The notes: generated by a model not told the origin, from the sequence alone. A DNA stretch of 32,000 nt from an uncultured archaeon (GCA_964426185.1 CAYRPF010000017.1:3158-35157), one strand, 5' to 3'. Shown: positions 11,935 through 32,000, counted from the first letter of the stretch. Made by a program: numbers and translations.

Positions 11935-12651
11935 TCAAATATCCATCATTTTTTTTTTTGCTTTTTCAAATACTAACTTAGCGGGATTTGTGGTTGAAAT
12001 ATAACTACCGCCTTCAAAATCCGTCAAAATCACGGTAAAGGGTTTACTTCCTTCTTTACATGCAAGTAATCTTTTCAAAGCTTCATTTGCCTGTTCCCAT
12101 TCATGAGTGTCAGCAGGGGTGGTTTGCAGGAAAAATTGAATTTGTTTCTCCATTTTCAGCAGAATACCCTCTATATTAGTAAAATCAAAGTTCGCTGCCG
12201 GACCACGCTCAATAGTTACTCCTATTTCAGGGATCTCTAGATTTCCTGTAGCACCTCGAAAAATTTTTGAAGTAAAATCGCCGTCGTCTACAGTTAATTG
12301 ATATTTTCCCGGTTTAAAAGCGGTATAAACAGGAATTGTATCGGCCTTTCGATAACCGCAATGTTCACAGAGAATAACGAAAATAATTACCTCGTCTCCA
12401 TCTGGTAATGAATACAAAGTACGGGTAATTTCAACTTCTTTATTGCAAACGGGGCACCTAATATCTTTTTCTATGGGAGGTAATTCATACTGTCCGTTTT
12501 TCCTTTTCAAATCAATTTTTTCTTGCAAAGATTTGGGTTTTGATGAATTAGATGAAGTGGATGAGGTGGGTTTAGCGAATGATGAATCTTTAGAAGATGG
12601 TTGTGAAGAAGAGGGATGAGATGAATTAGGTTTTTCGTTACTCAAGTTCAT
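11935..12651 (-). CDS. ZPR1-type zinc-finger protein with Ser-rich N-terminal extension
   Basis: CPVC..Y.LP..V.IF...CEHCGYR, LEIPEIG..IE.GP, TNIEGIL, FTVIL.D..G.SYI. Confidence 0.9.
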   Translation of the reverse strand: MNLSNEKPNSSHPSSSQPSSKDSSFAKPTSSTSSNSSKPKSLQEKIDLKRKNGQYELPPIEKDIRCPVCNKEVEITRTLYSLPDGDEVIIFVILCEHCGYRKADTIPVYTAFKPGKYQLTVDDGDFTSKIFRGATGNLEIPEIGVTIERGPAANFDFTNIEGILLKMEKQIQFFLQTTPADTHEWEQANEALKRLLACKEGSKPFTVILTDFEGGSYISTTNPAKLVFEKAKKKMMDI

Positions 12652-12805: not shown

Positions 12806-13420
12806 ATGATCGAAGATAAAATATTCGAAATCACTATGCACGGGCGAGGAGGACAAGGTGCCATCACTGCATCACTCCTTCTCTGTGAAGTTGCATATGC
12901 TGATGGATATACAGACGTACTGAGCATTCCTAAAATAGGTGCAGAAAGAAGAGGTGCTCCAATTAAAGCATTTGCAAAACTCTCTCGAAATAGAGAAATT
13001 AAAAATTATTCTGCCATTGAAGACGCTGATATAACTATAATTTTTGATGACTCGTTAATCCCTTTACCAGGAGTTGCAGATGCCATTAAACACGGAACCA
13101 TACTGATTAATACAAATCGAGAAATAGATATATCCAATTTTCCCGAAGCATGTAAAATTTATACGGTTCCCGTTACCAATATCGCTTTAGAACTAAACCT
13201 CACCACTGCAGGATATCCAATTTTGAATATCCCGCTATTAGGTGCACTAACGAAAATCAAATACTATGATGAAAGCGGAGAAACTGATTTAGGGCTTCAT
13301 TTAGAAACAATTGAAAAAGTGGCTTTGAAGAAATTCGGTTCTCGAGGGCATTTAAACTATGAAGCCGCGAGAAAAGCTGCCGAACAAGTTAAGGAGGTAT
13401 CACCAGGTAAGCAGGCTTAA
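12806..13420 (+). CDS. porG: Pyruvate/2-oxoacid:ferredoxin oxidoreductase gamma subunit
   Basis: HGRGGQGAITA, GAERRGAPI, N..LLGAL; first gene of a gamma-delta-alpha-beta operon; GAGG RBS. Confidence 0.9.
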   Translation: MIEDKIFEITMHGRGGQGAITASLLLCEVAYADGYTDVLSIPKIGAERRGAPIKAFAKLSRNREIKNYSAIEDADITIIFDDSLIPLPGVADAIKHGTILINTNREIDISNFPEACKIYTVPVTNIALELNLTTAGYPILNIPLLGALTKIKYYDESGETDLGLHLETIEKVALKKFGSRGHLNYEAARKAAEQVKEVSPGKQA

Positions 13421-13450
13421 ATGCATACCTCGTTTAAGAAGTGATGACTT

Positions 13451-13792
13451 ATGACAGAAAATAAAAATAATTGGGAAATAATCAGAAAATCCCGTGAAGA
13501 ACGCCCCAAAGTGCAATCATGGTCCTCTTTTTGGGATCTTCCGCCAGCTTCAGTATCCCTACCTGTAAAAGGATGCGCCGGTCATACTGGGGATTGGAGA
13601 ACTTTTCGACCCGTAATCAATCAAGAAGAATGCATTCAATGCTACCATTGTTATATGTATTGTCCAGAAGGCACGGTACTAATTGACGACGAAACCGGAG
13701 AGGTTAGTTTTGATTATGATTACTGTAAAGGCTGCGGGATCTGCGCAGAAATGTGCCCTAAAAACTGTATTGAGATGCAGAGAGAAGAATAA
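13451..13792 (+). CDS. porD: Pyruvate/2-oxoacid:ferredoxin oxidoreductase delta subunit (2x[4Fe-4S])
   Basis: TGDWRTFRP, CIQCYHCYMYCP, DYDYCKGCGICAEMCP. Confidence 0.92.
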   Translation: MTENKNNWEIIRKSREERPKVQSWSSFWDLPPASVSLPVKGCAGHTGDWRTFRPVINQEECIQCYHCYMYCPEGTVLIDDETGEVSFDYDYCKGCGICAEMCPKNCIEMQREE

Positions 13793-13832
13793 GGAAAAAA
13801 AAAGTGAAATGTAAGAAAAAAGGTGAAAAAAT

Positions 13833-15134
13833 ATGGTAGAACCAAAATTCTTTGAAGGTCCGCAGAAAGGTAATTTAGCCGCAGCATATGCGGCCATGGA
13901 CGCAAACGTTGATGTAGTTACAGCTTATCCCATAACCCCCCAAACCACAGTAGTGGAAGAATTAAGCCGATTAGTGGGGGAAGAAGAATTCCTCGCTCGC
14001 AATCAACACACGCAATTTATGCGGATGGAATCTGAACATAGTGTGGCTGCTGGGCTAGTAGGTGCGAGTTTTGCTGGAGCAAGAGTTTACTCGGCAACTG
14101 CAGGACAAGGCTTACTTTATATGACTGAAATGATCCACTGGATGGTCGGAGCCCGTTTACCAGTAGTTCTATCTATCGCAACCCGAGGAATAACCGGTGG
14201 TGGATGGAATATTTGGGCAGATTTCGGCGATATCATGGGATTACGTGATAGCGGAATAATGATTCAGTTGCTATCTACTCATCAAGAGATATATGATACT
14301 ATTTTAATGAGCTATAACATAGCAGAACATCCCGATGTGATGCTCCCTCTTTTTCCAGCTTATGGAGGTTTTGTGTTAAGTCATACTTCAAAGCCGGTAA
14401 AAAGAGTTCCGTGGGAAGAAGCGCAGAAATTCGTGATTCCAAAAAGAGATGAATGGGAACATATCTGGATAGATAGTAATAGACCGATAATGTCAGCAGC
14501 ATTGATTATGCCTCAAAGTTTTTATGCCGAATTTCGGATCAAAGCACACGAAGCCCAGATGAAAGCAATTCCCATTATTAAAGATACTATGGCCAAATTT
14601 AATAAGCAATTTGGTCGATCTTATGGAAATGGACTGGTTGAACCATACAAAGCCGATGACGCAGATGTATTAATGATCAGTTACGGAACAATTGCAAAAC
14701 AAGCCGAAGAAGTCATTGATATATTACGAAAGCAAGGCTACAAAGCCGGAGCTTTACGAATCCGAACTTATCGACCTTTCCCTGCTGCAGATATCCTGAA
14801 ATATATTAAAAACACTCCCGTGGTAGGTGTCATGGATCGGGCAATTTCCTTCGGCAATTATTCCGCCGGACCGCTGAGTTCAGATATTATGGCCGCTTGC
14901 CAACGCTACGAACCAACCCAGAACGCCAAAATTTTGCCATTTGTTGGTGGTTTAGGTGGCCGTGATGTAACTTTTGATGATCAAATCGAACAATTCAAAA
15001 TTCTCTTCGACCTAAAAGAAAAGGGCGAAGCACCCCATAAACCCTATAAGATGTGGGGAACCTACTGGACCGGCTTGATTACTGGCTCGGATAAGGTGCT
15101 ACAAGGAGAAGAAGAATATTTCGGAGATATATAA
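13833..15134 (+). CDS. porA: Pyruvate/2-oxoacid:ferredoxin oxidoreductase alpha subunit
   Basis: AYPITPQT, ESEHS, ATAGQGL, RPFP, GLGGRD; GGTGA RBS. Confidence 0.92.
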   Translation: MVEPKFFEGPQKGNLAAAYAAMDANVDVVTAYPITPQTTVVEELSRLVGEEEFLARNQHTQFMRMESEHSVAAGLVGASFAGARVYSATAGQGLLYMTEMIHWMVGARLPVVLSIATRGITGGGWNIWADFGDIMGLRDSGIMIQLLSTHQEIYDTILMSYNIAEHPDVMLPLFPAYGGFVLSHTSKPVKRVPWEEAQKFVIPKRDEWEHIWIDSNRPIMSAALIMPQSFYAEFRIKAHEAQMKAIPIIKDTMAKFNKQFGRSYGNGLVEPYKADDADVLMISYGTIAKQAEEVIDILRKQGYKAGALRIRTYRPFPAADILKYIKNTPVVGVMDRAISFGNYSAGPLSSDIMAACQRYEPTQNAKILPFVGGLGGRDVTFDDQIEQFKILFDLKEKGEAPHKPYKMWGTYWTGLITGSDKVLQGEEEYFGDI

Positions 15135-15147
15135 GGAGGAAAAAAAG

Positions 15148-16086
15148 ATGGCAAAAACTAAGATTAAAGATATCATAGCCAATCCCGAAACTAAAAGAGA
15201 ATACTTCCTACCCGGAAACGCCACCTGCCAAGGCTGCGGACTGGACCTGGCTCTGCGATGGGCAATGAAAGCACTCGGCCCAAAAACCGCCACCGTAAGT
15301 CCCGCCTCTTGTGCAAACGTGGTTACAGGTTTATGGCCCAAATCAGCGCCTGACTGGCCTTGGTTTAACATGGCCTTCGCCGCCTCGGCTGCCGCCGCTT
15401 CCGGTATGAAACATGGCTTAATTGCCAAAGGAAAGGGTGATTACAACGTGGTTGTATGGGCGGGTGATGGTGGGACCACAGATATCGGTATCCAAGGTTT
15501 GAGCGGTGCAGCCGAACGAAACGAAGATATCATATATGTATGTTATGATAACGAATCTTACATGAATACTGGTATACAGGCTAGTTCAAGTGCACCCCGT
15601 GGGACGGTTACGACCACGACACCGTATGGTAAGACGAAGAAGAAGAAGAACGTTCCTATGATTGTTGCGGCGCATAATGTGCCGTATGTAGCGACTTGCT
15701 CGGTCGGCAATCCGCTGGATTTGTATGATAAATTTAAGAAAGCGAAGGATATCAAGGGCTTTCGTTATATTCAAATTCTTTCACCTTGTCCTCCAGGTTG
15801 GCGTCATGATGGGAAGTATACCATTAGGCAGGCGCAGTTAGCGGTAGATACGGGCATTTTTCCTTTGTTCGAGATCGAGAATGGCATACTGACCTTAACA
15901 GGTAAGAGCAAAAGGCTGCATGATCCGACCAAACGTAAGCCCATAGGCGAATATTTCAGCAAGCAGAATCAAGGTCGGTTCAAATTGATTGATGAGAAGT
16001 TGCTGGAGCAGTTGCAGAAGGATGTGGATGAGTGGTGGTCTTGGATCGACCGTTATTTGGTTTATCAAGAGAATCTGGAGATATAA
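15148..16086 (+). CDS. porB: Pyruvate/2-oxoacid:ferredoxin oxidoreductase beta subunit (TPP-binding)
   Basis: CQGCG, GDGGT.DIG.QGLSG, YDNESYMNTG.Q, SPCP.GW; AGGAGG RBS. Confidence 0.92.
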   Translation: MAKTKIKDIIANPETKREYFLPGNATCQGCGLDLALRWAMKALGPKTATVSPASCANVVTGLWPKSAPDWPWFNMAFAASAAAASGMKHGLIAKGKGDYNVVVWAGDGGTTDIGIQGLSGAAERNEDIIYVCYDNESYMNTGIQASSSAPRGTVTTTTPYGKTKKKKNVPMIVAAHNVPYVATCSVGNPLDLYDKFKKAKDIKGFRYIQILSPCPPGWRHDGKYTIRQAQLAVDTGIFPLFEIENGILTLTGKSKRLHDPTKRKPIGEYFSKQNQGRFKLIDEKLLEQLQKDVDEWWSWIDRYLVYQENLEI

Positions 16087-21798: not shown

Positions 21799-22077
21799 TA
21801 GTAATTTAACCAATTTTATTCATTTCATCAAGAATTAATATGATAATATTGATTTTTGGTTTTATTTCTTATTTTGCTTCGGCGGTCTGGCATTCTAGAA
21901 AAAAAATCCTTAAAAACCTTTAAATATTCAGCCTTCTTTGGATAAACCTATCTAAATTACCTCCAATATTGAAAAATAGGGTGATTTTTTATAGAAAATT
22001 TATCCGCTTTCATTTTTTTTTGTAAAGAAATATATCCATAAAAATCGGGGATTGTTGGATCTTAGGGGTGATTCAAT

Positions 22078-25000
22078 ATTATAAATAATGCTAGAGAAAA
22101 AAAAAAAAAAGAGAATGAAAAATTAAGTAAAGCCACCAATATTCTCTCTGGAATTGCATTTGGATTAATCTATATTTTTGCAATTCCAAGTATTTTTGGA
22201 ATTCTTACTGCAGGAATTACCGCGATTTTTTCTTCTGAGGAATTTCTTGCAGGAGAATATGGTATCGGCTTCTTTATTCTGGCTATTTTATTTGCCTTGC
22301 CATTTGGATTGGGATTCTTTTATCGAACGCGTACAAAATCATCTCATTGGGAGATATATGTCAAAAATTTTTCAAAAGGCATTATCTCTGCAGTAATGGT
22401 GGCCCTAATTCCTTTAATTCTAAGTAATTTTACTTTTTACATAATTTTTCAATTATTGAATTACGATTCTTTCGAGTTTATATTCCCTTTTATAAGCATT
22501 ATTCTTTTTACATTAGCAAATGGAGTGTATTGGCTTTTCTACCAGCTTGATTTTTCAACATCAACAAATTTTCTTTCAGATTCTACAATTCAAAAACAAA
22601 ATGAACCCCATGATGGTTTGGTATCAATTTACTTACAAAATAAATCAAGAAATTTAGTGCAAGAATTGTTCTTATTTTTCAGCATAAAATCTTTAATATC
22701 GGCAATAATTTTTTCGGTTTTTCATTCGATTTTGTTGGAGATCATCATAGATCTCTCCATTTTAACTATATTTATTCTAGGATTTTCCATTTTCTATCCC
22801 AAAATGAAGGCAAAATATCAAAATGAAGAGCATCAAAAACACCATCTACCATTTATTTTTCTTGATTTCATCAAGATCACGCTACTTATCCTACCTTTTA
22901 TTGGTTTAGTCCCCCAATTTAGGTATTTAAAACAATCTTTTGCTTTGATTTTACCTTTTTCTGTGTTTATGTTGATTAAAATAACTTGCGTGTTGCTTCT
23001 TAAATTTCGCGAAATTCGATTGAAGTATTTTCTTCCCATCATTGCTAAAACATTCTTGCAAGAAATAAGTATGGCTATTTCCTTGATTTCATCCATGATT
23101 ATCTTCATAATTGGGATAATTTCTACTTCAGATAGAATTCTAACCTTAATTTTGCTTACTACCATTTTCTTTGAAGGCTTATGTGAATATGCAATATTTA
23201 AAATTCCCACAAAAAAAATAGATCTCCAAAACCAGTTCTTATTCTTTATTGTAAACGTTTTTCTCAGCTTTATTATAATTCCGACTAGTTGGTATTTCCA
23301 ACTTTTGATATTTACGATACTCGCTCTTGTTGCAGGAAAATTTCTAAAAATGCATGATGAACGGCTGCAAAAATATCATAGACATCTTCAAACAATCATG
23401 TTTTTGATCCTTATGGTTGAGATTGGTTTATCATTAGCTATTTTTTCAACTGCTAACGATTGGCTGATAAATTCATTTCCTTTTATCAATTATATCTTCT
23501 TTCTAAACATCTCTCTTTTAAGTATTTTTATTCACCTCCAAAACGTGGAATATAATCGAAAACCTCCGAAAAGTTTAACTGTTTCAATCTTAGGAAGCCT
23601 TTTGATCCTGCAATTAGGATTATTTTTGCTTTTAATCGGTGGAATTCACCAAATTACATCTATATTTTTAGATTTATCCAGACAATCCTTCATATTTCAA
23701 CTGATTTTTCAAAAAGAAGGTTTATTAGATTTAACAAATACTAATAATTTCATTGGAGCAATTGGAAATTGGACGTCTCAATTCCATCTCCTTTTTCGAT
23801 CAAATCTATTATTCAATGAATTATTATCACTTTCTTTAAGCGCTATAACATGTATCTTCTTTTTCAATTTAATTGTTCAAATAAATGGTAAATTTGGTTT
23901 CTTACCAAGAAGCCTCCCACGAAAAATTCAATTCTTTGAAAATTTAGTTATAATTCAAATAATTTCACTTATTCCTTTCTTTTATTGTCCATCTTTAACG
24001 AGTTTTATAATTGGAAAATATCTCAGGAATTTTCTGATGATTAAATTTAGCAAGCGATGGATAAATGAATTCACAAAAGAAAATGAATCCGCATTAAAAA
24101 TTACCCTTATTTCGTTTTTCAAACTTGGAAATAATCTCATGCTTCTTCCGCTTACGACTTTCCTCTTAAGTGAATTTTTTGAAATGAATCTGGTTTTATC
24201 TCTCTTCATCGGTATTTTAATTGGATTTTTCGCATATAATTACTTCGAACCTATAATAAAATTACCTATACTTCAAAAAACTTGGAAAAAAGTAAAAATA
24301 TTCGATATCGGACGAATATGTTACCATTTCTTGATGATTTTAGTTTTTTCAGTCTATGGAATTCTTATAATAAGAATGTTAATAATTCAGTATTTAGAAC
24401 CCACTTTTGGATTTTTATTATCAATTTTAATCTTAGGCATTACTTTAAGAATGAATTTACGATTTCTAAAAACACCCTTGGAGATCTTAAATAATAACAA
24501 AATAATTTCTGATGAGAAGTATGTACGAACAAAATTTTCATCTTGGATCTTCTCGAATTTCATCGGTTGTGTGAATATTGGGATATTTTTGCAAATAATT
24601 CTCTTCTCTTCGATTAGAACTTATATTCTAGCCAATAAAATCTACGGAACAATCGTTTTCGAATTTTTACTGCCTATAATCCTTTATGTATTTATTTCCT
24701 TTCATTTTGGTAAACAATATAATAATTTCCTTCTTCATAAAAAATATCAGAAAAAGACCAAGGCTTTCAGCCTATTCAGCGAATTATTGTTAATTTTAGT
24801 AATTTGCCTCATCATAGAATTCTTTTTATACAATTATATATTTGGAATCTTCTTTTCTACAGCAGTTTTCATGAGTATCATGTATTTTCACTGCAAGAAA
24901 TTTTTGATAATCTATCCAAACAAAGAAAAACTTATTGAACAGATTAAATGTACTATAAAATTAGTCAACTCTCTGATGATATCCTTAGTAATTGCTTTCT

Positions 25001-28000
25001 TTATCCAAGAATTTTTACCAAGTTCGCCTTTTCTTTTAATTTTTATTTCTTCATTTCTGACTCTCATAATATTTGGTATCTTTCAAAGAAAACAACCTAT
25101 TTTAGCAGAAAACATTGCTGCTATAGGAAAAAGTTTAATTCTTCTCATAAATGCATTAAGCACCCTCGGAATTTTCTTTTTTTCCAAATTCTGGGATTTT
25201 TCAAGTATTTCAGCCAATTATAAAATAATATTCATTAGTATGGCTTGTAACTACATTATTTCAGTAATAATCTATGGGATTATCCAATTTAATAAATACA
25301 ACCTACTTTCAAAGCAATCTCTACCTATGATTCTTTTAATTCCAACTCAATTAGGCTTTTTCACTCTTTATATCTTCTTACTGGGCTTCTTTGGCATGAT
25401 AATTGCAGGCTTTTCATTAATTGGATTTTCATTATCTTTAGGAGCAGAAATTGCATTAAAAGGTTTTCTTCCCTCCTTATTTCTCTCTTTTATATCCAGA
25501 AATTTGAGTAAATTCAAAGTATTTAAACCATTACAGAGATATTCCACGATATTTAAATACCAAACAGTCATTTGGTGGAATATATTTGCTTTTTCGCAAG
25601 CATTAATGTTAATATTAATCAACCCATCCAAACCATTTTTGATTCTCCTGGCAATTATCTTCTTTACATCTACAATAATCCAAACCACGAAAGATTTAGC
25701 CAAGATATATGAAAAAATCACCCATAAAGCGAAATTTATCATAGATATGTTGTTGATTATAAATATTATTTTTAGTGCATCTTTCATTTTTGTACTTTGT
25801 AGAATTAATTTCAACTTAAGTCTTATTTTAACAACATTGATTGTCAGCATTTACTCAACCATCATGTTTTCGCGTGTTAATCTATTCTCTCACTATATTT
25901 TCCCTACAGTATATCAAATTGTGAAATTAATACTGCTAAATACTATTTTTGTTTCATTTTTTATCTTTTGCGCGCAGTTGGCGCAGATTTATTTTATAGA
26001 TGAAAATTCCATAGTTGAACAAAGAATTTATCTATATTACTCTATTTTACTTGGATTTCAATATTTTATACCTTTATTCAAACATAATATTAGAATTTTG
26101 AAAGAAATCAACATAATACCAGTTAGATTTTGGGAATCAATCCATTTTGGGCTTTTACATTTCCAATTTTATTCCATGATTTTGGCTGAACTTATGTTAT
26201 TAAGTCATATTTCAGGATTTTATTCTTTTTCTCTAATGAAATCAATGATTAATCCTACTTATTGGCTTTTCTTGGTTCCTTCCACTATGATTCTTCCAGG
26301 GATTTTGCTGTATCTAAATAGTAAGAATTCTAAATTTGACCAGAAAACACAATTCCAGCACGCATTCTTGGTCGAATTTTATATGTATTTCTTGAGTATC
26401 GTTATTTCCATAGGGATAGGTAACATTCTAATTACAGAATTTAGATGGGAGCTGTTAATTGGAATCATTTCAGTTATCAAACTATACTTGGTATTCACAT
26501 TAATCCGAATCAATCATATTTTATTAAAACTTGAAAAAATATTGAACCCGGTTATCTTGGCACTGAAAAGATTGATACTTTTGGAGATTGGTGGGTTTTT
26601 AGTAACACTTTTACATTACCAATTTGCAGTAAGATGGATTACAGCCGGGTTTTTCGGATTAGTTCTTTTAAATGCGCTTGTTTTGAGTATTTCTTTCTTC
26701 AAAGATTGTATTCCTGTGAGTTTATGGAATGAATTTTTAGGATTCATCGTTCTATGCACTGGATGGACATTATTCGCCGTTTTAATTCATTTCAGCCTTC
26801 CACTTGAAAACCAAATCTCCTATCTTCTATTCACATCCATCCTTATTGCCCCATTGAGTTTAACTTATCTAGCACTTTTAATCATACGAAATGGTAAAAT
26901 ACCTACAAAAATCACTTTTCATTTGCTGCAAGTTGTGTTTTTCTTAATTATCACAGATTTGATGTTTGTTGTCTATACTGGTATTAATCAAATTATTTCG
27001 CCAGTTTTCTTCCTAATTCCTATGGTATTCATTCTCAACAGTGCAATATTTTATGATAAAAAACATCTGATGCTTTTTATGAATAGAAAATTGGAATTAA
27101 TCACTTCTTCGTTAGTGTTTGTGTTTTCCTATTGTTCTCTTTCAATATTCATATCAGACTTAATTGCATTTAACTTAGAAACACAAATATTTGTGTTTTG
27201 CTTGGCGATACTACCAGGAATTTATTTGGGATTGAAATTAACTGAAAAAAATTATGCTAAATATATTGATCTATATGTTCTAACTAAAGAAAAGCAAAAA
27301 ACAAAAACCTCACATGATTTTGCCCTTATTGAAGATAGAGTAGTTGAAAAAGGAGTAACTAGAGAAGAACTTCTTGAAGAAAAGCAAGATACTGAATTAA
27401 GCAAAGAATTAGAGACAGGAAAAAAGCAAGAATTTGAACAAAAACAAGAAGTGAAATTCAATTCAAAGCAGGAATTTCAAAAAATTCCTTTAGGTTTTTC
27501 AATAATCGACTATTTGCATAGAAAATACACCTTGTTTTTTAAAAGTTGGATGATCTTTGCTGGACTTCTTCTTTCCTATTTTTGGATTCGACTTGCATGG
27601 TTGAATCATATATCTTTAGTATTTACAATCAGTGCCAGCTTATTGGGCTTGATTTTTGTCTCAAAATCAATCTATAAGGAAGATTTCAGATTATTAACCT
27701 TCTATTCCATAATTATTGGAAATATATTATATTACCTCATTATTGCATACATTCAGCCGCAAAATCTAACAATAAGCTTAATCCTTTCGATAATAATTCT
27801 AGGTGTTTTTCACAGATTAACAACCTCACTTCTCCCACAACCGAAAGAATTGCTGAATTTGGAAAATATTCTAATATTAAGTTTATACTGGAGTGCATTA
27901 TCCATTTTACCTTGGAACATCAGTTTAATTATCTTAATGATTACCAGTGTATTTCTTATCTTATCCCCGCGTAGTTATTTGAATTTGTTTTTTGTAACGG

Positions 28001-31000
28001 TATTTGTAGGGTCCATCATTTTCTTTTTTTACACTTTAATGACGTATTATGACATTTCTTGGTATCTCAGCCTCACTGGAAGTATAACAATTGGTGTGTT
28101 TGGAGAATGGATACTTTGCGGCATTTCCATAAGATGGAGAAAGAGTTTATTGAAAACTTTATTGGGATATCTTGCTTATAGTATAAGTTTGCTCTCCTTT
28201 GGCTCTCTTTTATATGATTATTTCTACTTCATGCGCTATATTGCCCCTGTTGTGTTTGGAGTCATTCTGGGTTTGGTCTATCTTCTCCAGAAAGCAACTC
28301 AATCTCCGAGGCAAAAAATATTTTTTACAGTATTAATTTTTGCCCATACTTTCTTACTTTTTCTCTCAATTGGATATTGTTATTTATTCTATTCTTTAGC
28401 TTATCTTATTCCTTTAAGCATAACTTTGGGTATAGGATTAACTCTCTTAATGTACTTCTTCTTTTTCGAGCATTTCAATTTACCAATCAACCCAAATATG
28501 GTTAAAGCAACCTTATTCTTAGCTGGAACAGGATTCTCATTAAATATACTTTTATTGTTAATCGAACCGACTTTAATTCAATTAGCATTAAAGATAGCCA
28601 TCCCTATTGCTTTAGATTTCTATATTTTCATATATTTTATCGGTGTAGGGTTATATCTTAAGCAATTTACAAAAGAAATTTGGAATAAAGGTGCATATGC
28701 ATGGCTTTTTGTACCAATTGTTAATTTCGTATTGATTCTTGAAGCAGTCACCAATATCGATGAATACACCTTAGCAATTCAGCTTTCAAAAATCTCTCTT
28801 TCTGGATCAATCGTTCTCTCAATATTGATAAGTTCACTATTATATTTGCCTTATCTCTTAACTAAATTGAAGAAATTCATAGATTATTTCGTATATGTAT
28901 TTTGGACGGAATTGTTATTGTTAGTTTATTGGGCTTCAGCGAATATATTTCCCATTAACTTTCTATTACAGATTCCCTTCGTAGGTTTGATTACTATCGC
29001 AGTAATTATCCCATATTATTATTTCAGGAAAAGATGGAATTTGCTCTTATATCTTTGGCCCGTTGCCTGCGCCTTAAATATAGTATTCTTTTCGTTATAC
29101 TTTACTTTCGGTTTGCAATGGGAGGTTCCCCTCAATTTCTTCATCGGTGCCCTTTATTTAGTGATATATGCTAATTTTCCTCCGATAAAAGAGAAAATTC
29201 CCATATTAAAACTGGTATTTACTATTTCAAGCTATTTAATCTTATTTGGGAGCCTATTTGCATTATTATATTCATTTATCGTTATAATCTTCTACGATTG
29301 GGTGATTTCTGCATCCATCAGCCTTATCATCATGAGTTTTGCCTTGATCCCTGGAAGATTTTTCCAAATTGACAAAAAAATCCTCAAACCAATTTTCTCG
29401 ATATTTTTAGCGATTGGCACAGGGTTGGTAATTTGGAGAACTTTCAGTTTAATTCAAGCTGCAGATTTTAACCTTTTTGGTGTTTTCTTAGGTATTGCCT
29501 TTTTCTGGGCTTTGATGCTGCTTTTCCAAGTAAAAGAATACCTGTTATCTAAATTTTATCAGATCTCTTGGGGTTTTATGGCTTTATCCTTCGGTTTGGC
29601 AGCATTTGAGATATTTTTAACCGTATTTAGAGTAGGAGAATGGGCTTCAACTGGTGTTTTAATTCTAGTTGCGACTTTCATAACTTTCCCCCTATCCAAA
29701 AAGCATTTAGTACTCCCATTTAGCTTTATTTGTATTGCTATTGCGTTAATTCTTAACCAAGCGATAATTATCATCTGGAATTTAGCTAAAGTTCAACCAG
29801 CTTTGACATTTGTCCATCTAACCTTAACTTTATTCTGGGGTTTGAGTTTTCTAGGTTATAAAATGATTCGTTTCGGTATTTTTGCAAATAAAATGAAAAA
29901 TTTCCTGGTTTATTTGGATATTTGGGGGCTATTTATCATTACTACCTCAGTAAATATTGTTCTTTCGATAAATTTGATGATTCCGCTAGATTGGTATAAT
30001 TTTGGTGGAATATTATGTAATTTATTATTATTTTTCTCAGTCGCTACCGCATATGCTCTAAAATCTAACGATATCATTTTGGATTCCACTAACTTGCAGA
30101 AGATCCTTAGCATTTTTAGAAATTATCTCATAGTTGGTCTTTATTTGATAAATTCCCTACTAATTTCTTTAAACGCTCCCGTTTTACTTCTAAATGAATC
30201 TGAAATATTAGGTATAGTCTTGTATCGAGCCAGCATATTCTTTGCAACCTTATATTTGGTAATTTTAGTCTTAGATAAATATATTATCAAGGCACTTGAG
30301 AGAAAGATCCAAAAAGAAATTCTTTGGGTTCTCGTTTTAGGATTCAGTTTGTTTATTTCTGCTTATTCGTTTATATCATGGCAAACATGGCAGCTGAGTT
30401 TGCTAATTTTTGCTTCCTTAAGCATATATACCCTATTCTTGGTTAGCAGGGTCCATCGATTGAAATTTCATATGAGTCTGGTCATAACCGATATTTTTCT
30501 GCTAAATGTGAGCCTATTCTGGGTTCTCTTTATTTCATTTGACATTACCAAAGTTGTTCATGAAAGAACTGGTTATTATATTTTACTGATCGGGTCGATT
30601 ACTGCTTTAATTGATTATCTACTAGTTCGTATCAAAGTTATTCCCCAGAAATCGAGGGTGTATTTCGCAGTTCAATTAAATGTAATTCTAGCCGCCTTTG
30701 CATGTGAAGCATTTAGGTTACAATTTAATCAATCTTATTCCGATATACTTGGATTGGCTAATATATTAGCAGTATTTGTTGGAACTTTGATTGTGACGAA
30801 CATCAAATTAATTAAAAGAAATGAATTGGTTTTAGCTTTTTGGATGAGTTTTTCCTATGCAATTGGAATGTTAATTTTCAATTCTGCCAAAATACTGTTA
30901 AATTCTTTTGGGTTGACTTTTCATATTCCGGAAGCAATCCTCTTCTTTGTAGGAATTTTGTTTTTCATTTTCCACATCTTTTTATCATCTCTAATGAAGA

Positions 31001-32000
31001 ATATAATTATTTTTACCACAAATGATGATTTCCAAAAAAAAGATGATAATTCTCCTGTTCTCAGCAGTTTTTCAAGAATAAAAATGAAAACAGCTAACTA
31101 TAAATCGATAAAACATTGGATTATCCCAAAATTGTCTTTTAATTTTCCACAAGATGCATTGAATATGGAATTATCCTATAAAATCTCCCAAGTAATTTTA
31201 TTGGGGGGGGTTGTTACTGCTGTGAATCACTTTTGGAACAAAATTTTTGTTCTAATCTTTAACCAAGGGCAGATCTCTTTAGCATTCCAAATAATACTGT
31301 GGTTCCTAAGCTTTATGGTTTTTATTACATTTGGATGGCTCTATATTTTAAATAATTTTGACAAAAATAACCTCACTCTTCAATTTAAATTAAATTTTCT
31401 CAAAAATAAAGCATTGATTCGTGCAATATCTATCTATCTATGTAGTGTTTCTCTTTTTTTCCATTTATGGCCAATTCTCAACCTTTCTGAATATATTGGT
31501 ACTCTGAAATTTGACAGATTGTTCCTTGATTTGTTGATTGTCAATCTTTTTCTTTTAGTAAGTAAGAAATCACTTCATATTGCACAAAAAATCTTCCAAT
31601 ACTTTAAATTATCAGCTACGCTTCTCTTTTCTTGCTATATTTTTGAAGTTCTGAGAATTTTCACCCAAATACCGTTGTTTTTAAATGTGGCATTAGTTTT
31701 TTTTGTATTTGCAGTGTTAAATATTCAGAACATCACAAATATTCTGCATGTATATCTATTTTGGGCATTCTTTACTAATCTTATCAGTTCTTTGGTCTAT
31801 CTGTTTATTTCTACCTTCATTATCCACTTAGAATCTTTGTTTAATATAATTATAACCAATTTGTTCATATTTGGAATAGTTTTCACCTTTATCACAGGTT
31901 TGATCACAGAAATTGAAATCCACAATCGGGATAAAATAGCACTCTCTTTGAGAGAAAGTTCAATGGCTTTTAGAATAAAGAAATCTATTCCACAAATCCT
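22078..32000 (+). CDS. Giant polytopic membrane protein (>3,300 aa, 3' end outside window; absent from ORF track)
   Basis: Frame 1 opens after TGA 22069-22071. No stop in the portions I translated, and the track lists no terminated ORF in this frame. Continuous alternation of about 20-aa I/L/F-rich segments with short or K/R-rich loops. Start uncertain (ATT 22078 after GGGGTGA, or ATG 22088 via slippage). Confidence 0.9.
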   Translation, partial: MINNAREKKKKENEKLSKATNILSGIAFGLIYIFAIPSIFGILTAGITAIFSSEEFLAGEYGIGFFILAILFALPFGLGFFYRTRTKSSHWEIYVKNFSKGIISAVMVALIPLILSNFTFYIIFQLLNYDSFEFIFPFISIILFTLANGVYWLFYQLDFSTSTNFLSDSTIQKQNEPHDGLVSIYLQNKSRNLVQELFLFFSIKSLISAIIFSVFHSILLEIIIDLSILTIFILGFSIFYPKMKAKYQNEEHQKHHLPFIFLDFIKITLLILPFIGLVPQFRYLKQSFALILPFSVFMLIKITCVLLLKFREIRLKYFLPIIAKTFLQEISMAISLISSMIIFIIGIISTSDRILTLILLTTIFFEGLCEYAIFKIPTKKIDLQNQFLFFIVNVFLSFIIIPTSWYFQLLIFTILALVAGKFLKMHDERLQKYHRHLQTIMFLILMVEIGLSLAIFSTANDWLINSFPFINYIFFLNISLLSIFIHLQNVEYNRKPPKSLTVSILGSLLILQLGLFLLLIGGIHQITSIFLDLSRQSFIFQLIFQKEGLLDLTNTNNFIGAIGNWTSQFHLLFRSNLLFNELLSLSLSAITCIFFFNLIVQINGKFGFLPRSLPRKIQFFENLVIIQIISLIPFFYCPSLTSFIIGKYLRNFLMIKFSKRWINEFTKENESALKITLISFFKLGNNLMLLPLTTFLLSEFFEMNLVLSLFIGILIGFFAYNYFEPIIKLPILQKTWKKVKIFDIGRICYHFLMILVFSVYGILIIRMLIIQYLEPTFGFLLSILILGITLRMNLRFLKTPLEILNNNKIISDEKYVRTKFSSWIFSNFIGCVNIGIFLQIILFSSIRTYILANKIYGTIVFEFLLPIILYVFISFHFGKQYNNFLLHKKYQKKTKAFSLFSELLLILVICLIIEFFLYNYIFGIFFSTAVFMSIMYFHCKKFLIIYPNKEKLIEQIKCTIKLVNSLMISLVIAFFIQEFLPSSPFLLIFISSFLTLIIFGIFQRKQPILAENIAAIGKSLILLINALSTLGIFFFSKFWDFSSISANYKIIFISMACNYIISVIIYGIIQFNKYNLLSKQSLPMILLIPTQLGFFTLYIFLLGFFGMIIAGFSLIGFSLSLGAEIALKGFLPSLFLSFISRNLSKFKVFKPLQRYSTIFKYQTVIWWNIFAFSQALMLILINPSKPFLILLAIIFFTSTIIQTTKDLAKIYEKITHKAKFIIDMLLIINIIFSASFIFVLCRINFNLSLILTTLIVSIYSTIMFSRVNLFSHYIFPTVYQIVKLILLNTIFVSFFIFCAQLAQIYFIDENSIVEQRIYLYYSILLGFQYFIPLFKHNIRILKEINIIPVRFWESIHFGLLHFQFYSMILAELMLLSHISGFYSFSLMKSMINPTYWLFLVPSTMILPGILLYLNSKNSKFDQKTQFQHAFLVEFYMYFLSIVISIGIGNILITEFRWELLIGIISVIKLYLVFTLIRINHILLKLEKILNPVILALKRLILLEIGGFLVTLLHYQFAVRWITAGFFGLVLLNALVLSISFFKDCIPVSLWNEFLGFIVLCTGWTLFAVLIHFSLPLENQISYLLFTSILIAPLSLTYLALLIIRNGKIPTKITFHLLQVVFFLIITDLMFVVYTGINQIISPVFFLIPMVFILNSAIFYDKKHLMLFMNRKLELITSSLVFVFSYCSLSIFISDLIAFNLETQIFVFCLAILPGIYLGLKLTEKNYAKYIDLYVLTKEKQKTKTSHDFALIEDRVVEKGVTREELLEEKQDTELSKELETGKKQEFEQKQEVKFNSKQEFQKIPLGFSIIDYLHRKYTLFFKSWMIFAGLLLSYFWIRLAWLNHISLVFTISASLLGLIFVSKSIYKEDFRLLTFYSIIIGNILYYLIIAYIQPQNLTISLILSIIILGVFHRLTTSLLPQPKELLNLENILILSLYWSALSILPWNISLIILMITSVFLILSPRSYLNLFFVTVFVGSIIFFFYTLMTYYDISWYLSLTGSITIGVFGEWILCGISIRWRKSLLKTLLGYLAYSISLLSFGSLLYDYFYFMRYIAPVVFGVILGLVYLLQKATQSPRQKIFFTVLIFAHTFLLFLSIGYCYLFYSLAYLIPLSITLGIGLTLLMYFFFFEHFNLPINPNMVKATLFLAGTGFSLNILLLLIEPTLIQLALKIAIPIALDFYIFIYFIGVGLYLKQFTKEIWNKGAYAWLFVPIVNFVLILEAVTNIDEYTLAIQLSKISLSGSIVLSILISSLLYLPYLLTKLKKFIDYFVYVFWTELLLLVYWASANIFPINFLLQIPFVGLITIAVIIPYYYFRKRWNLLLYLWPVACALNIVFFSLYFTFGLQWEVPLNFFIGALYLVIYANFPPIKEKIPILKLVFTISSYLILFGSLFALLYSFIVIIFYDWVISASISLIIMSFALIPGRFFQIDKKILKPIFSIFLAIGTGLVIWRTFSLIQAADFNLFGVFLGIAFFWALMLLFQVKEYLLSKFYQISWGFMALSFGLAAFEIFLTVFRVGEWASTGVLILVATFITFPLSKKHLVLPFSFICIAIALILNQAIIIIWNLAKVQPALTFVHLTLTLFWGLSFLGYKMIRFGIFANKMKNFLVYLDIWGLFIITTSVNIVLSINLMIPLDWYNFGGILCNLLLFFSVATAYALKSNDIILDSTNLQKILSIFRNYLIVGLYLINSLLISLNAPVLLLNESEILGIVLYRASIFFATLYLVILVLDKYIIKALERKIQKEILWVLVLGFSLFISAYSFISWQTWQLSLLIFASLSIYTLFLVSRVHRLKFHMSLVITDIFLLNVSLFWVLFISFDITKVVHERTGYYILLIGSITALIDYLLVRIKVIPQKSRVYFAVQLNVILAAFACEAFRLQFNQSYSDILGLANILAVFVGTLIVTNIKLIKRNELVLAFWMSFSYAIGMLIFNSAKILLNSFGLTFHIPEAILFFVGILFFIFHIFLSSLMKNIIIFTTNDDFQKKDDNSPVLSSFSRIKMKTANYKSIKHWIIPKLSFNFPQDALNMELSYKISQVILLGGVVTAVNHFWNKIFVLIFNQGQISLAFQIILWFLSFMVFITFGWLYILNNFDKNNLTLQFKLNFLKNKALIRAISIYLCSVSLFFHLWPILNLSEYIGTLKFDRLFLDLLIVNLFLLVSKKSLHIAQKIFQYFKLSATLLFSCYIFEVLRIFTQIPLFLNVALVFFVFAVLNIQNITNILHVYLFWAFFTNLISSLVYLFISTFIIHLESLFNIIITNLFIFGIVFTFITGLITEIEIHNRDKIALSLRESSMAFRIKKSIPQI
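22097..22110 (+). repeat. A14 homopolymer at the 5' end of the giant gene
   Basis: ATGCTAGAG-A14-GAGAATG. Confidence 0.9.

Follow-up and report, generated by a model that had tools for sequence, protein, structure and literature searches.

What kind of gene, if any, lies behind a plus-strand open reading frame (ORF) that fills the last third of a 32,000-nucleotide stretch from an uncultured archaeon (GCA_964426185.1 CAYRPF010000017.1:3158-35157, hereafter the window) and encodes little but hydrophobic helices? A preliminary description of the window, made from its sequence, had proposed an uncharacterised Asgard membrane protein of more than 3,300 residues (aa) starting at position 22072. The current study shows a genuine and conserved gene in an Asgard archaeon of Lokiarchaeia type; its single chain of 4,290 residues is predicted to have about 110-130 membrane crossings, some three times the number of Piezo.

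An intact gene confined to one archaeal order

From 22072 to 31998 the translated frame comprises 3,309 codons with zero stops and is open up to the window end, as expected from the roughly 9.9 kb described earlier; in the genome it closes at G000:C17:38110 (window-equivalent 34953, L001:14111) after a stop-to-stop length of 4,293 codons. The full protein of about 4,290 aa is thus longer than first estimated, and codon 22072 proved to be the first after a stop and not a start codon. The intact 12.9-kb frame is the longest ORF of the whole assembly and its product tops hydrophobicity among the 70 longest ORFs of the genome (grand average of hydropathy, 0.92), with Leu, Ile and Phe accounting for 43% of the part encoded in the window. 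A shadow ORF or compositional artefact is ruled out by end-to-end orthology; the closest homologue, K9W44_04180 of Ca. Harpocratesius repetitus from the same genus (4,296 aa), is 45% identical over its full length. Since the long frame is conserved in more than 100 genomes and, in those complete copies that were examined, stays unbroken for 8-15 kb, the gene is argued to be functional.

Complete family members measure about 2,500-4,900 aa. They include DSAG12_00898 of Promethearchaeum syntrophicum MK-D1 (QEE15075.1; 3,940 aa) as well as NEF87_003094 (4,905 aa) and NEF87_002906 (3,146 aa) of Ca. Lokiarchaeum ossiferum, all annotated as hypothetical, which share caps, core and repeats with the present protein at about 26-35% identity in the best-aligned stretches. 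A profile of the conserved core detected the gene in 117 of the order's 154 genomes, those of MK-D1, L. ossiferum and H. repetitus among them, and almost always as a single copy. It also hit one of seven sister-order genomes, and the 239 other Asgard genomes searched yielded nothing beyond one weak short match (E 0.003); a C-cap profile recovered a nearly identical set. Several near-complete genomes of the order (e.g., G041, G039, G053 and G204) gave no match with core or C-cap queries. The sole homologue outside the order (G183; L127:851-8695, minus strand; 2,615 aa) matches the core profile and not the C-cap profile. A search of 1.84 billion proteins returned 31 matches, and those that were aligned are family members or fragments. 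No paper of the searchable literature mentions the locus tags of the homologues, and no description of the family was found there, subscription papers being outside the search. The gene is therefore uncharacterised and Asgard, as first described; its presumed relevance to Asgard cell architecture narrows to one order and one sister genome, with gaps even within the order. Confinement to one order limits any claims on eukaryote origins. The cultured Lokiarchaeia belong to this order, most of which keeps the gene in single copy.

How the giant frame is entered

The first 75 codons contain no canonical in-frame start (ATG, GTG or TTG). The first one, TTG at 22297, falls inside transmembrane (TM) helix 2 and past the conserved TM1, and residues T22 and P39, which are conserved to 95-98% across 71 sequences, lie ahead of it. 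The likeliest solution is a non-AUG start at ATT or ATA behind the Shine-Dalgarno-like motif listed in Table 1; the mode of Shine-Dalgarno spacing in this genome is 11-14 nt. Of the 19 ORFs that have such a motif but lack an early canonical start, 14 carry an in-frame ATH at that distance, versus 42 of 199 comparable cases (p 6e-6). One of the 14, which we take from its motif to be a MutL-like gene, has a conserved N-terminal motif ahead of any canonical start. ATT and ATA starts behind Shine-Dalgarno motifs are apparently regular in the genome (G000), e.g., on contigs C28 (near 4582, plus strand), C125, C24 and C127, and gene callers would truncate the respective proteins. The database protein of the same contig (P0010; 4,185 aa) begins at residue 109 and loses two helices.

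At 22088 lies an out-of-frame ATG with a tract of 14 adenines (A14) behind it, and slippage on this tract may serve as an alternative route into the giant frame. The same arrangement could mean that the family is real but the present copy switched off or phase-variable, a reading that would account for the missing canonical in-frame start and for the ATAAATA-ATG context, which is identical to that of the H. repetitus start. We consider it improbable. The A14 tract is unchanged in three assemblies (two others of the same species), one of which has AAG in place of the ATG, though near its contig end; the orthologue P0004 has an equal arrangement with no A-tract; and the frame is unbroken over its entire length, with an ATT or ATA at typical spacing of a kind that is enriched in the genome.

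With respect to expression, the MK-D1 homologue has a value of 152 reads per kilobase per million (RPKM) (PMC7015854). In the part of Supplementary Table 3 of that study covering about 115 consecutive genes, RPKM values, that of ribosomal protein L21e among them, stay between 109 and 375, and 152 belongs to the lowest. The value was rejected as proof of expression because it lies near the bottom of a nearly flat table, and low RPKM values from these rows should not be cited as proof of transcription.

Helices, repeat arms and a conserved core

The number of helices was approached in two ways. A Kyte-Doolittle scan found 110 segments in the whole chain at a strict cut-off and 120 at a lower one (85-93 in the window part), and it returned the same 13 segments in the first 460 aa that had been counted before. 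A family-averaged topology of four co-linear orthologues gave 126-132 helices in most settings; the model used here has 127, of which 98 fall into the window. Compared with the 90-100 or more helices first extrapolated, the count of the whole chain is higher, at 110 to about 127-130. The strict count exceeds chance (110 versus 78.6 +/- 4.1 in residue shuffles), but the lenient one (130 versus 129 in column shuffles) is alone not above its control. Because column shuffles reach a similar count, the lenient number rests on the alternation of Lys/Arg (K/R) content between loops and on the agreement with AlphaFold in two regions, where about 19-20 (core) and 15 (C-cap) membrane-length helices were modelled versus 19 and 15 in the topology. 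With helices called without a charge prior, loop K/R content showed autocorrelations of -0.68 at lag 1 and +0.68 at lag 2, the most negative of 2,000 permutations being -0.34. The median inside loop is 18.5 aa long with 3.9 K/R, the median outside loop 9 aa with 0.4 K/R (the longest outside one, 64 aa), in line with the short loops alternating with K/R-rich ones that had been noticed before. From the odd helix count and the positive-inside rule we infer that the N-terminus is in and the C-terminus out. The density is one helix per 33 aa with no soluble domain; the supposed lack of a soluble catalytic domain held in topology and family searches alike.

The layout predicted from the sequence is an 8-TM N-cap, a repeat arm, the conserved core, a second repeat arm and a C-cap that includes an amphipathic helix. 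Sequence conservation is highest at the two termini and at aa 2100-2600, and the arms lie between these maxima. The central core is far more conserved than the arms, which diverge fast (about 27-55% identity within the genus), and the picture of a uniform protein of hairpins was accordingly not borne out. No meaningful repeats exist at the DNA level, as previously stated, and the ancient duplication suspected on that account is visible in the protein as 4-TM and 8-TM units. The periods are about 268 aa in the N-arm and about 300 aa in the C-arm, reversed controls reaching at most 6 bits. Since the sister families have periods of about 130 aa (4 TM, N-arm) and 122-250 aa, the basic unit is four helices. 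The C-arm module, with an EExxR-type motif in each repeat, is present in three copies here, two in MK-D1 and, in the two proteins of L. ossiferum, five and one; its profile has a further match at the end of the core (HH probability 89%). The length of the arms changes in steps of about 130 aa, even between close relatives, and is uncorrelated between the two arms (rho 0.06, n=48, kin not independent), and the arms appear from these comparisons to gain or lose 4-TM or 8-TM units independently. A model in which the arms zip antiparallel as a ruler is out, since the lengths are uncorrelated in the larger family and the correlation in the home family follows kinship.

The AlphaFold model of the core (aa 2050-2620) has a predicted local distance difference test (pLDDT) score of 89, a predicted template modelling (pTM) score of 0.62, about 19-20 helices and one small beta-hairpin. 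The invariant positions of the core are all W, P, F or N; no acid, His or Lys is strictly conserved. S2246 is present in 85/87 sequences, D2230 in 77/87 and E2280 in 65/87, the last position being hydrophobic in 22/87. Conserved buried N, Q, H, E or D residues occur in about half of the helices, and buried N, E and D are spread over the whole chain, arms and core alike. The core may hold an intramembrane catalytic site, which would be non-standard compared with the rhomboid, MBOAT and GT-C types. The C-cap model is essentially all-helical (pLDDT 91, pTM 0.58) and the last two helices are linked by a 16-residue basic loop; the 39 residues of the amphipathic helix reach a hydrophobic moment of 0.60 (95th percentile, 0.41). 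The combination of hairpins with an amphipathic helix on the cytoplasmic side resembles the reticulon/caveolin mode, a likeness of mode only and not of homology. A profile similarity between C-cap and core (32%) equals the level of reversed controls (up to 31%) and was not used.

Table 1. Features of the giant gene (window positions; aa, residues of the giant protein)
Feature	Position	Strand	Remarks
Window part of giant ORF	22072..32000	+	3,309 codons, about 98 TM helices; rest (B3 and C-cap) beyond window
Shine-Dalgarno-like motif GGGGTGA	22065..22071	+	13 nt ahead of in-frame ATT, 16 nt ahead of in-frame ATA
Probable non-canonical start, ATT 22078 or ATA 22081	22078..22083	+	inferred
Out-of-frame ATG, then A14 tract	22088..22110	+	possible entry by slippage
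N-cap	22078..23001	+	aa 3-310, 8 TM; separate upstream gene in 9 related genomes
N-arm repeat array	23779..26751	+	aa ~570-1560, period ~268 aa (8 TM)
Longest cytoplasmic loop	27235..27546	+	104 aa, highly charged, poorly conserved
Conserved core	27919..29931	+	aa 1950-2620, up to 80% identity with H. repetitus
Hub, TM64-69	28594..29091	+	aa 2175-2340; invariant W, P, N residues, D/N2182
C-arm repeat B1	30259..30996	+	8 TM, EExxR-type motif
C-arm repeat B2	31210..31908	+	sequence repeat
C-arm repeat B3	aa 3336-3564, beyond window	+	sequence repeat
C-cap	aa 3815-4293, beyond window	+	15 TM, amphipathic helix aa 4114-4152, terminal E...WR motif

The caps can be detached. Nine genomes scattered over several branches share one split point for the N-cap, and the separate N-cap genes of about 310 aa are adjacent or overlapping, e.g., at L103:5446-6384, L073:5581-6519, L074:14198-15139, L084:3042-3971 and L060:4894-5835. 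A second split point is found at G014:C32:13418-14812, where a main frame of 2,068 aa is followed by a distinct frame of 803 aa that holds the C-cap. In G019, a 92-aa duplicate of the N-terminus lies just upstream of the intact copy (L066:15179-15454, minus strand). Copies of the C-terminal end, broken or isolated, occur near or apart from intact genes (G226:C10:70386-71426, G236:C62:5004-5345, G245:C266:4891-5262 and G192:C73:18398-18688), which suggests frequent partial duplication of this end.

The search for orthologues proposed at the outset was thus fruitful within the order, and no gene neighbour was found to be conserved across families. A conserved operon was rejected: neighbouring genes are retained within a genus or a single family at most and bear no relation to one another across groups, with Band 7/flotillin beside the giant gene in Promethearchaeum, PhoU in the present clade, and glycosyl hydrolase 4 plus an aminotransferase in the sister family. 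The Band 7/flotillin gene precedes the giant on the same strand (L016:2207-3439, plus strand) and is not kept outside the genus. Beyond the window, a PhoU-domain gene lies directly downstream of the giant (L001:14214-15266, plus strand), likewise at the P0002 and P0004 loci, where DNA methyltransferase and mutS genes follow it. Elsewhere in the window, a ZPR1-family zinc-finger gene (11935-12651, minus strand) is located by a 2-oxoacid:ferredoxin oxidoreductase operon (12806-16086).

Function and comparison with known systems

Searches against known families gave little guidance. Pfam had no match for the window part (E<=0.1) nor for core or C-cap members, NCBIfam had none, and a PDB sequence search returned nothing significant. 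No PADLOC defence model matched. The transporter families (MFS, RND, Mrp/complex I subunits, secondary and ABC) had no Pfam or NCBIfam match and neither an ATPase nor a periplasmic domain was present, in agreement with the reported lack of a transporter signature; in-frame stops, a far lower helix number or an end-to-end match to a transporter, any of which would have spoken against the preliminary description, were not seen. The Pfam profiles of DUF2339 and DUF2157, whose members it had named for comparison, gave no match either. The fragment-wise structure comparison it had envisaged covered the core and C-cap models, for which Foldseek found nothing at E<=0.001; VIA gave best Z values of 8.9 and 9.6, on short hairpins, and an Atlas structure search gave TM-scores below 0.3 by query, Atlas feature searches being weak or empty. 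No Piezo chain was among the matches listed for these two regions, where generic helical matches dominate, a result that does not show a new fold.

Tentatively, and from sequence features, we favour a modular intramembrane solenoid scaffold with a conserved hub that would organise or curve the membrane. This reading is preferred over an enzyme or a classical transporter because of the quantised, independent arms, the detachable caps, the structural type of the invariant residues and the lack of a soluble domain; arm lengths quantised in steps of about 130 aa suggest a structural spacer. About 64 helical hairpins, derived from a degenerate 4-TM unit, would line up laterally to form a plasma-membrane ribbon of inferred shape and an estimated length of about 60 nm if extended (about 1 nm per hairpin). 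Short outer turns, longer basic inner linkers and the amphipathic helix of the C-cap would hold on to anionic headgroups and act as a wedge in the inner leaflet, the arms would fence off, stiffen or curve a membrane patch, and the hub and caps might bind a lineage-specific partner or further copies. Where this would take place can only be guessed, e.g., at protrusion necks and constrictions. In favour are tandem units far above reversed-sequence controls and hairpins that run wall-to-wall, and a high pLDDT with a pTM of about 0.6 would fit elongated assemblies. Several observations speak against a scaffold. The mid-membrane residues D/N2182, N2218, E2280 and N2336 and the strong central conservation also fit a pore or ligand site. 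The gene was not found in several near-complete genomes of the order or in the other Asgard lineages searched, and it lacks a neighbour common to all families. The weak start codon and, within the table part cited above, the low RPKM of MK-D1 suggest a low abundance, which would be unusual for a bulk structural protein.

A Piezo-like mechanosensitive channel that arose by convergence is the less probable alternative, with the arms as curved levers and the core (TM63-72), alone or oligomeric, as a gated pore. The 4-TM unit recalls the helical units of Piezo, the variable and detachable distal parts parallel the distal blade of PEZO-1, which is dispensable (PMC12951647), and conserved polar residues at mid-membrane depth are concentrated in the core together with kinking prolines. 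Against this, the protein has no extracellular cap domain, beam or cytoplasmic C-terminus and no Piezo family match, E2280 is replaced by hydrophobic residues in a quarter of the sequences, and the conserved part sits between two arms in the middle of the chain. Less likely still is a conduit or accessory machine within the membrane, whose lateral groove would scramble or flip lipids or lipid-linked glycans, or guide large surface proteins or polymers in insertion or export. The conserved buried polar residues, the EExxR-type motif of each C-arm repeat and the nearly constant single copy would suit it, but it has neither a transporter family match nor linked glycosylation or secretion genes, and the free arm length is hard to fit with a defined pathway. 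A signalling or defence sensor, with a ribbon that monitors membrane state, virus or partner contact and a hub that relays to a cytoplasmic effector, could explain the rapid change of arm sequences and lengths and the patchy absence but is very doubtful given tiny outside loops, no signalling domain, no PADLOC match and housekeeping neighbourhoods. The remaining chance falls to something unforeseen.

Within the scaffold reading, a bolder version is a long shot: an intramembrane skeleton element without known counterpart, in which a ribbon of tens of nanometres would close into a collar or lattice via hub and caps and set the curvature of Lokiarchaeial necks and constrictions, the repeat number tuning the diameter. 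In the literature examined, no established shaping machinery was found for Lokiarchaeial protrusions, constrictions and the envelope, which lacks an ordered S-layer. L. ossiferum has a single membrane, no ordered S-layer, and densities at necks and curved regions (PMC9834061), which give a place to look and no link to the giant protein. As MK-D1 and L. ossiferum carry named homologues, the role is directly testable.

Among known systems, Piezo offers an analogy only. It comprises 38 helices in nine helical units and forms a trimer with a cap, beam and pore module (PMC12951647). Both are very long polytopic chains with dispensable distal parts, and the Piezo blade unit of four helices has its like in the periods of about 130 aa (4 TM) and 268/300 aa (8 TM). 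In contrast to Piezo, the present protein has about three times more helices, its hub lies mid-chain between two arms, and cap, beam, terminal pore module and sequence match are lacking; the short basic loop takes the place of the large extracellular cap between the last two helices. Judged by its sequence, the giant protein is not a Piezo, as it has neither the cap nor a sequence match. Its roughly 128 densely packed helices raise the question of how such a chain is inserted and folded. It does not hold the record for predicted helices per chain, since giant proteins of Omnitrophota, which likewise exceed 100, have up to 331 predicted TM helices in 122,534 aa (bioRxiv 10.64898/2026.06.07.730766); these are mostly non-membrane, with one helix per about 370 aa, so that the present protein is about tenfold denser. 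DUF2339 (PF10101) proteins are also multi-hairpin membrane proteins of unassigned function and weak Atlas look-alikes (feature score 0.84; TM 0.22/0.48), but they are much shorter and score at chance level. Soluble alpha-solenoids (TPR, HEAT, 14-3-3 and Nup170) share stacked helical hairpins and fill the weak structural match lists, yet they are soluble and their matches generic (Z below 9, no E below 0.001). The giant protein is new as an architecture, and its newness concerns this architecture and not a demonstrated function.

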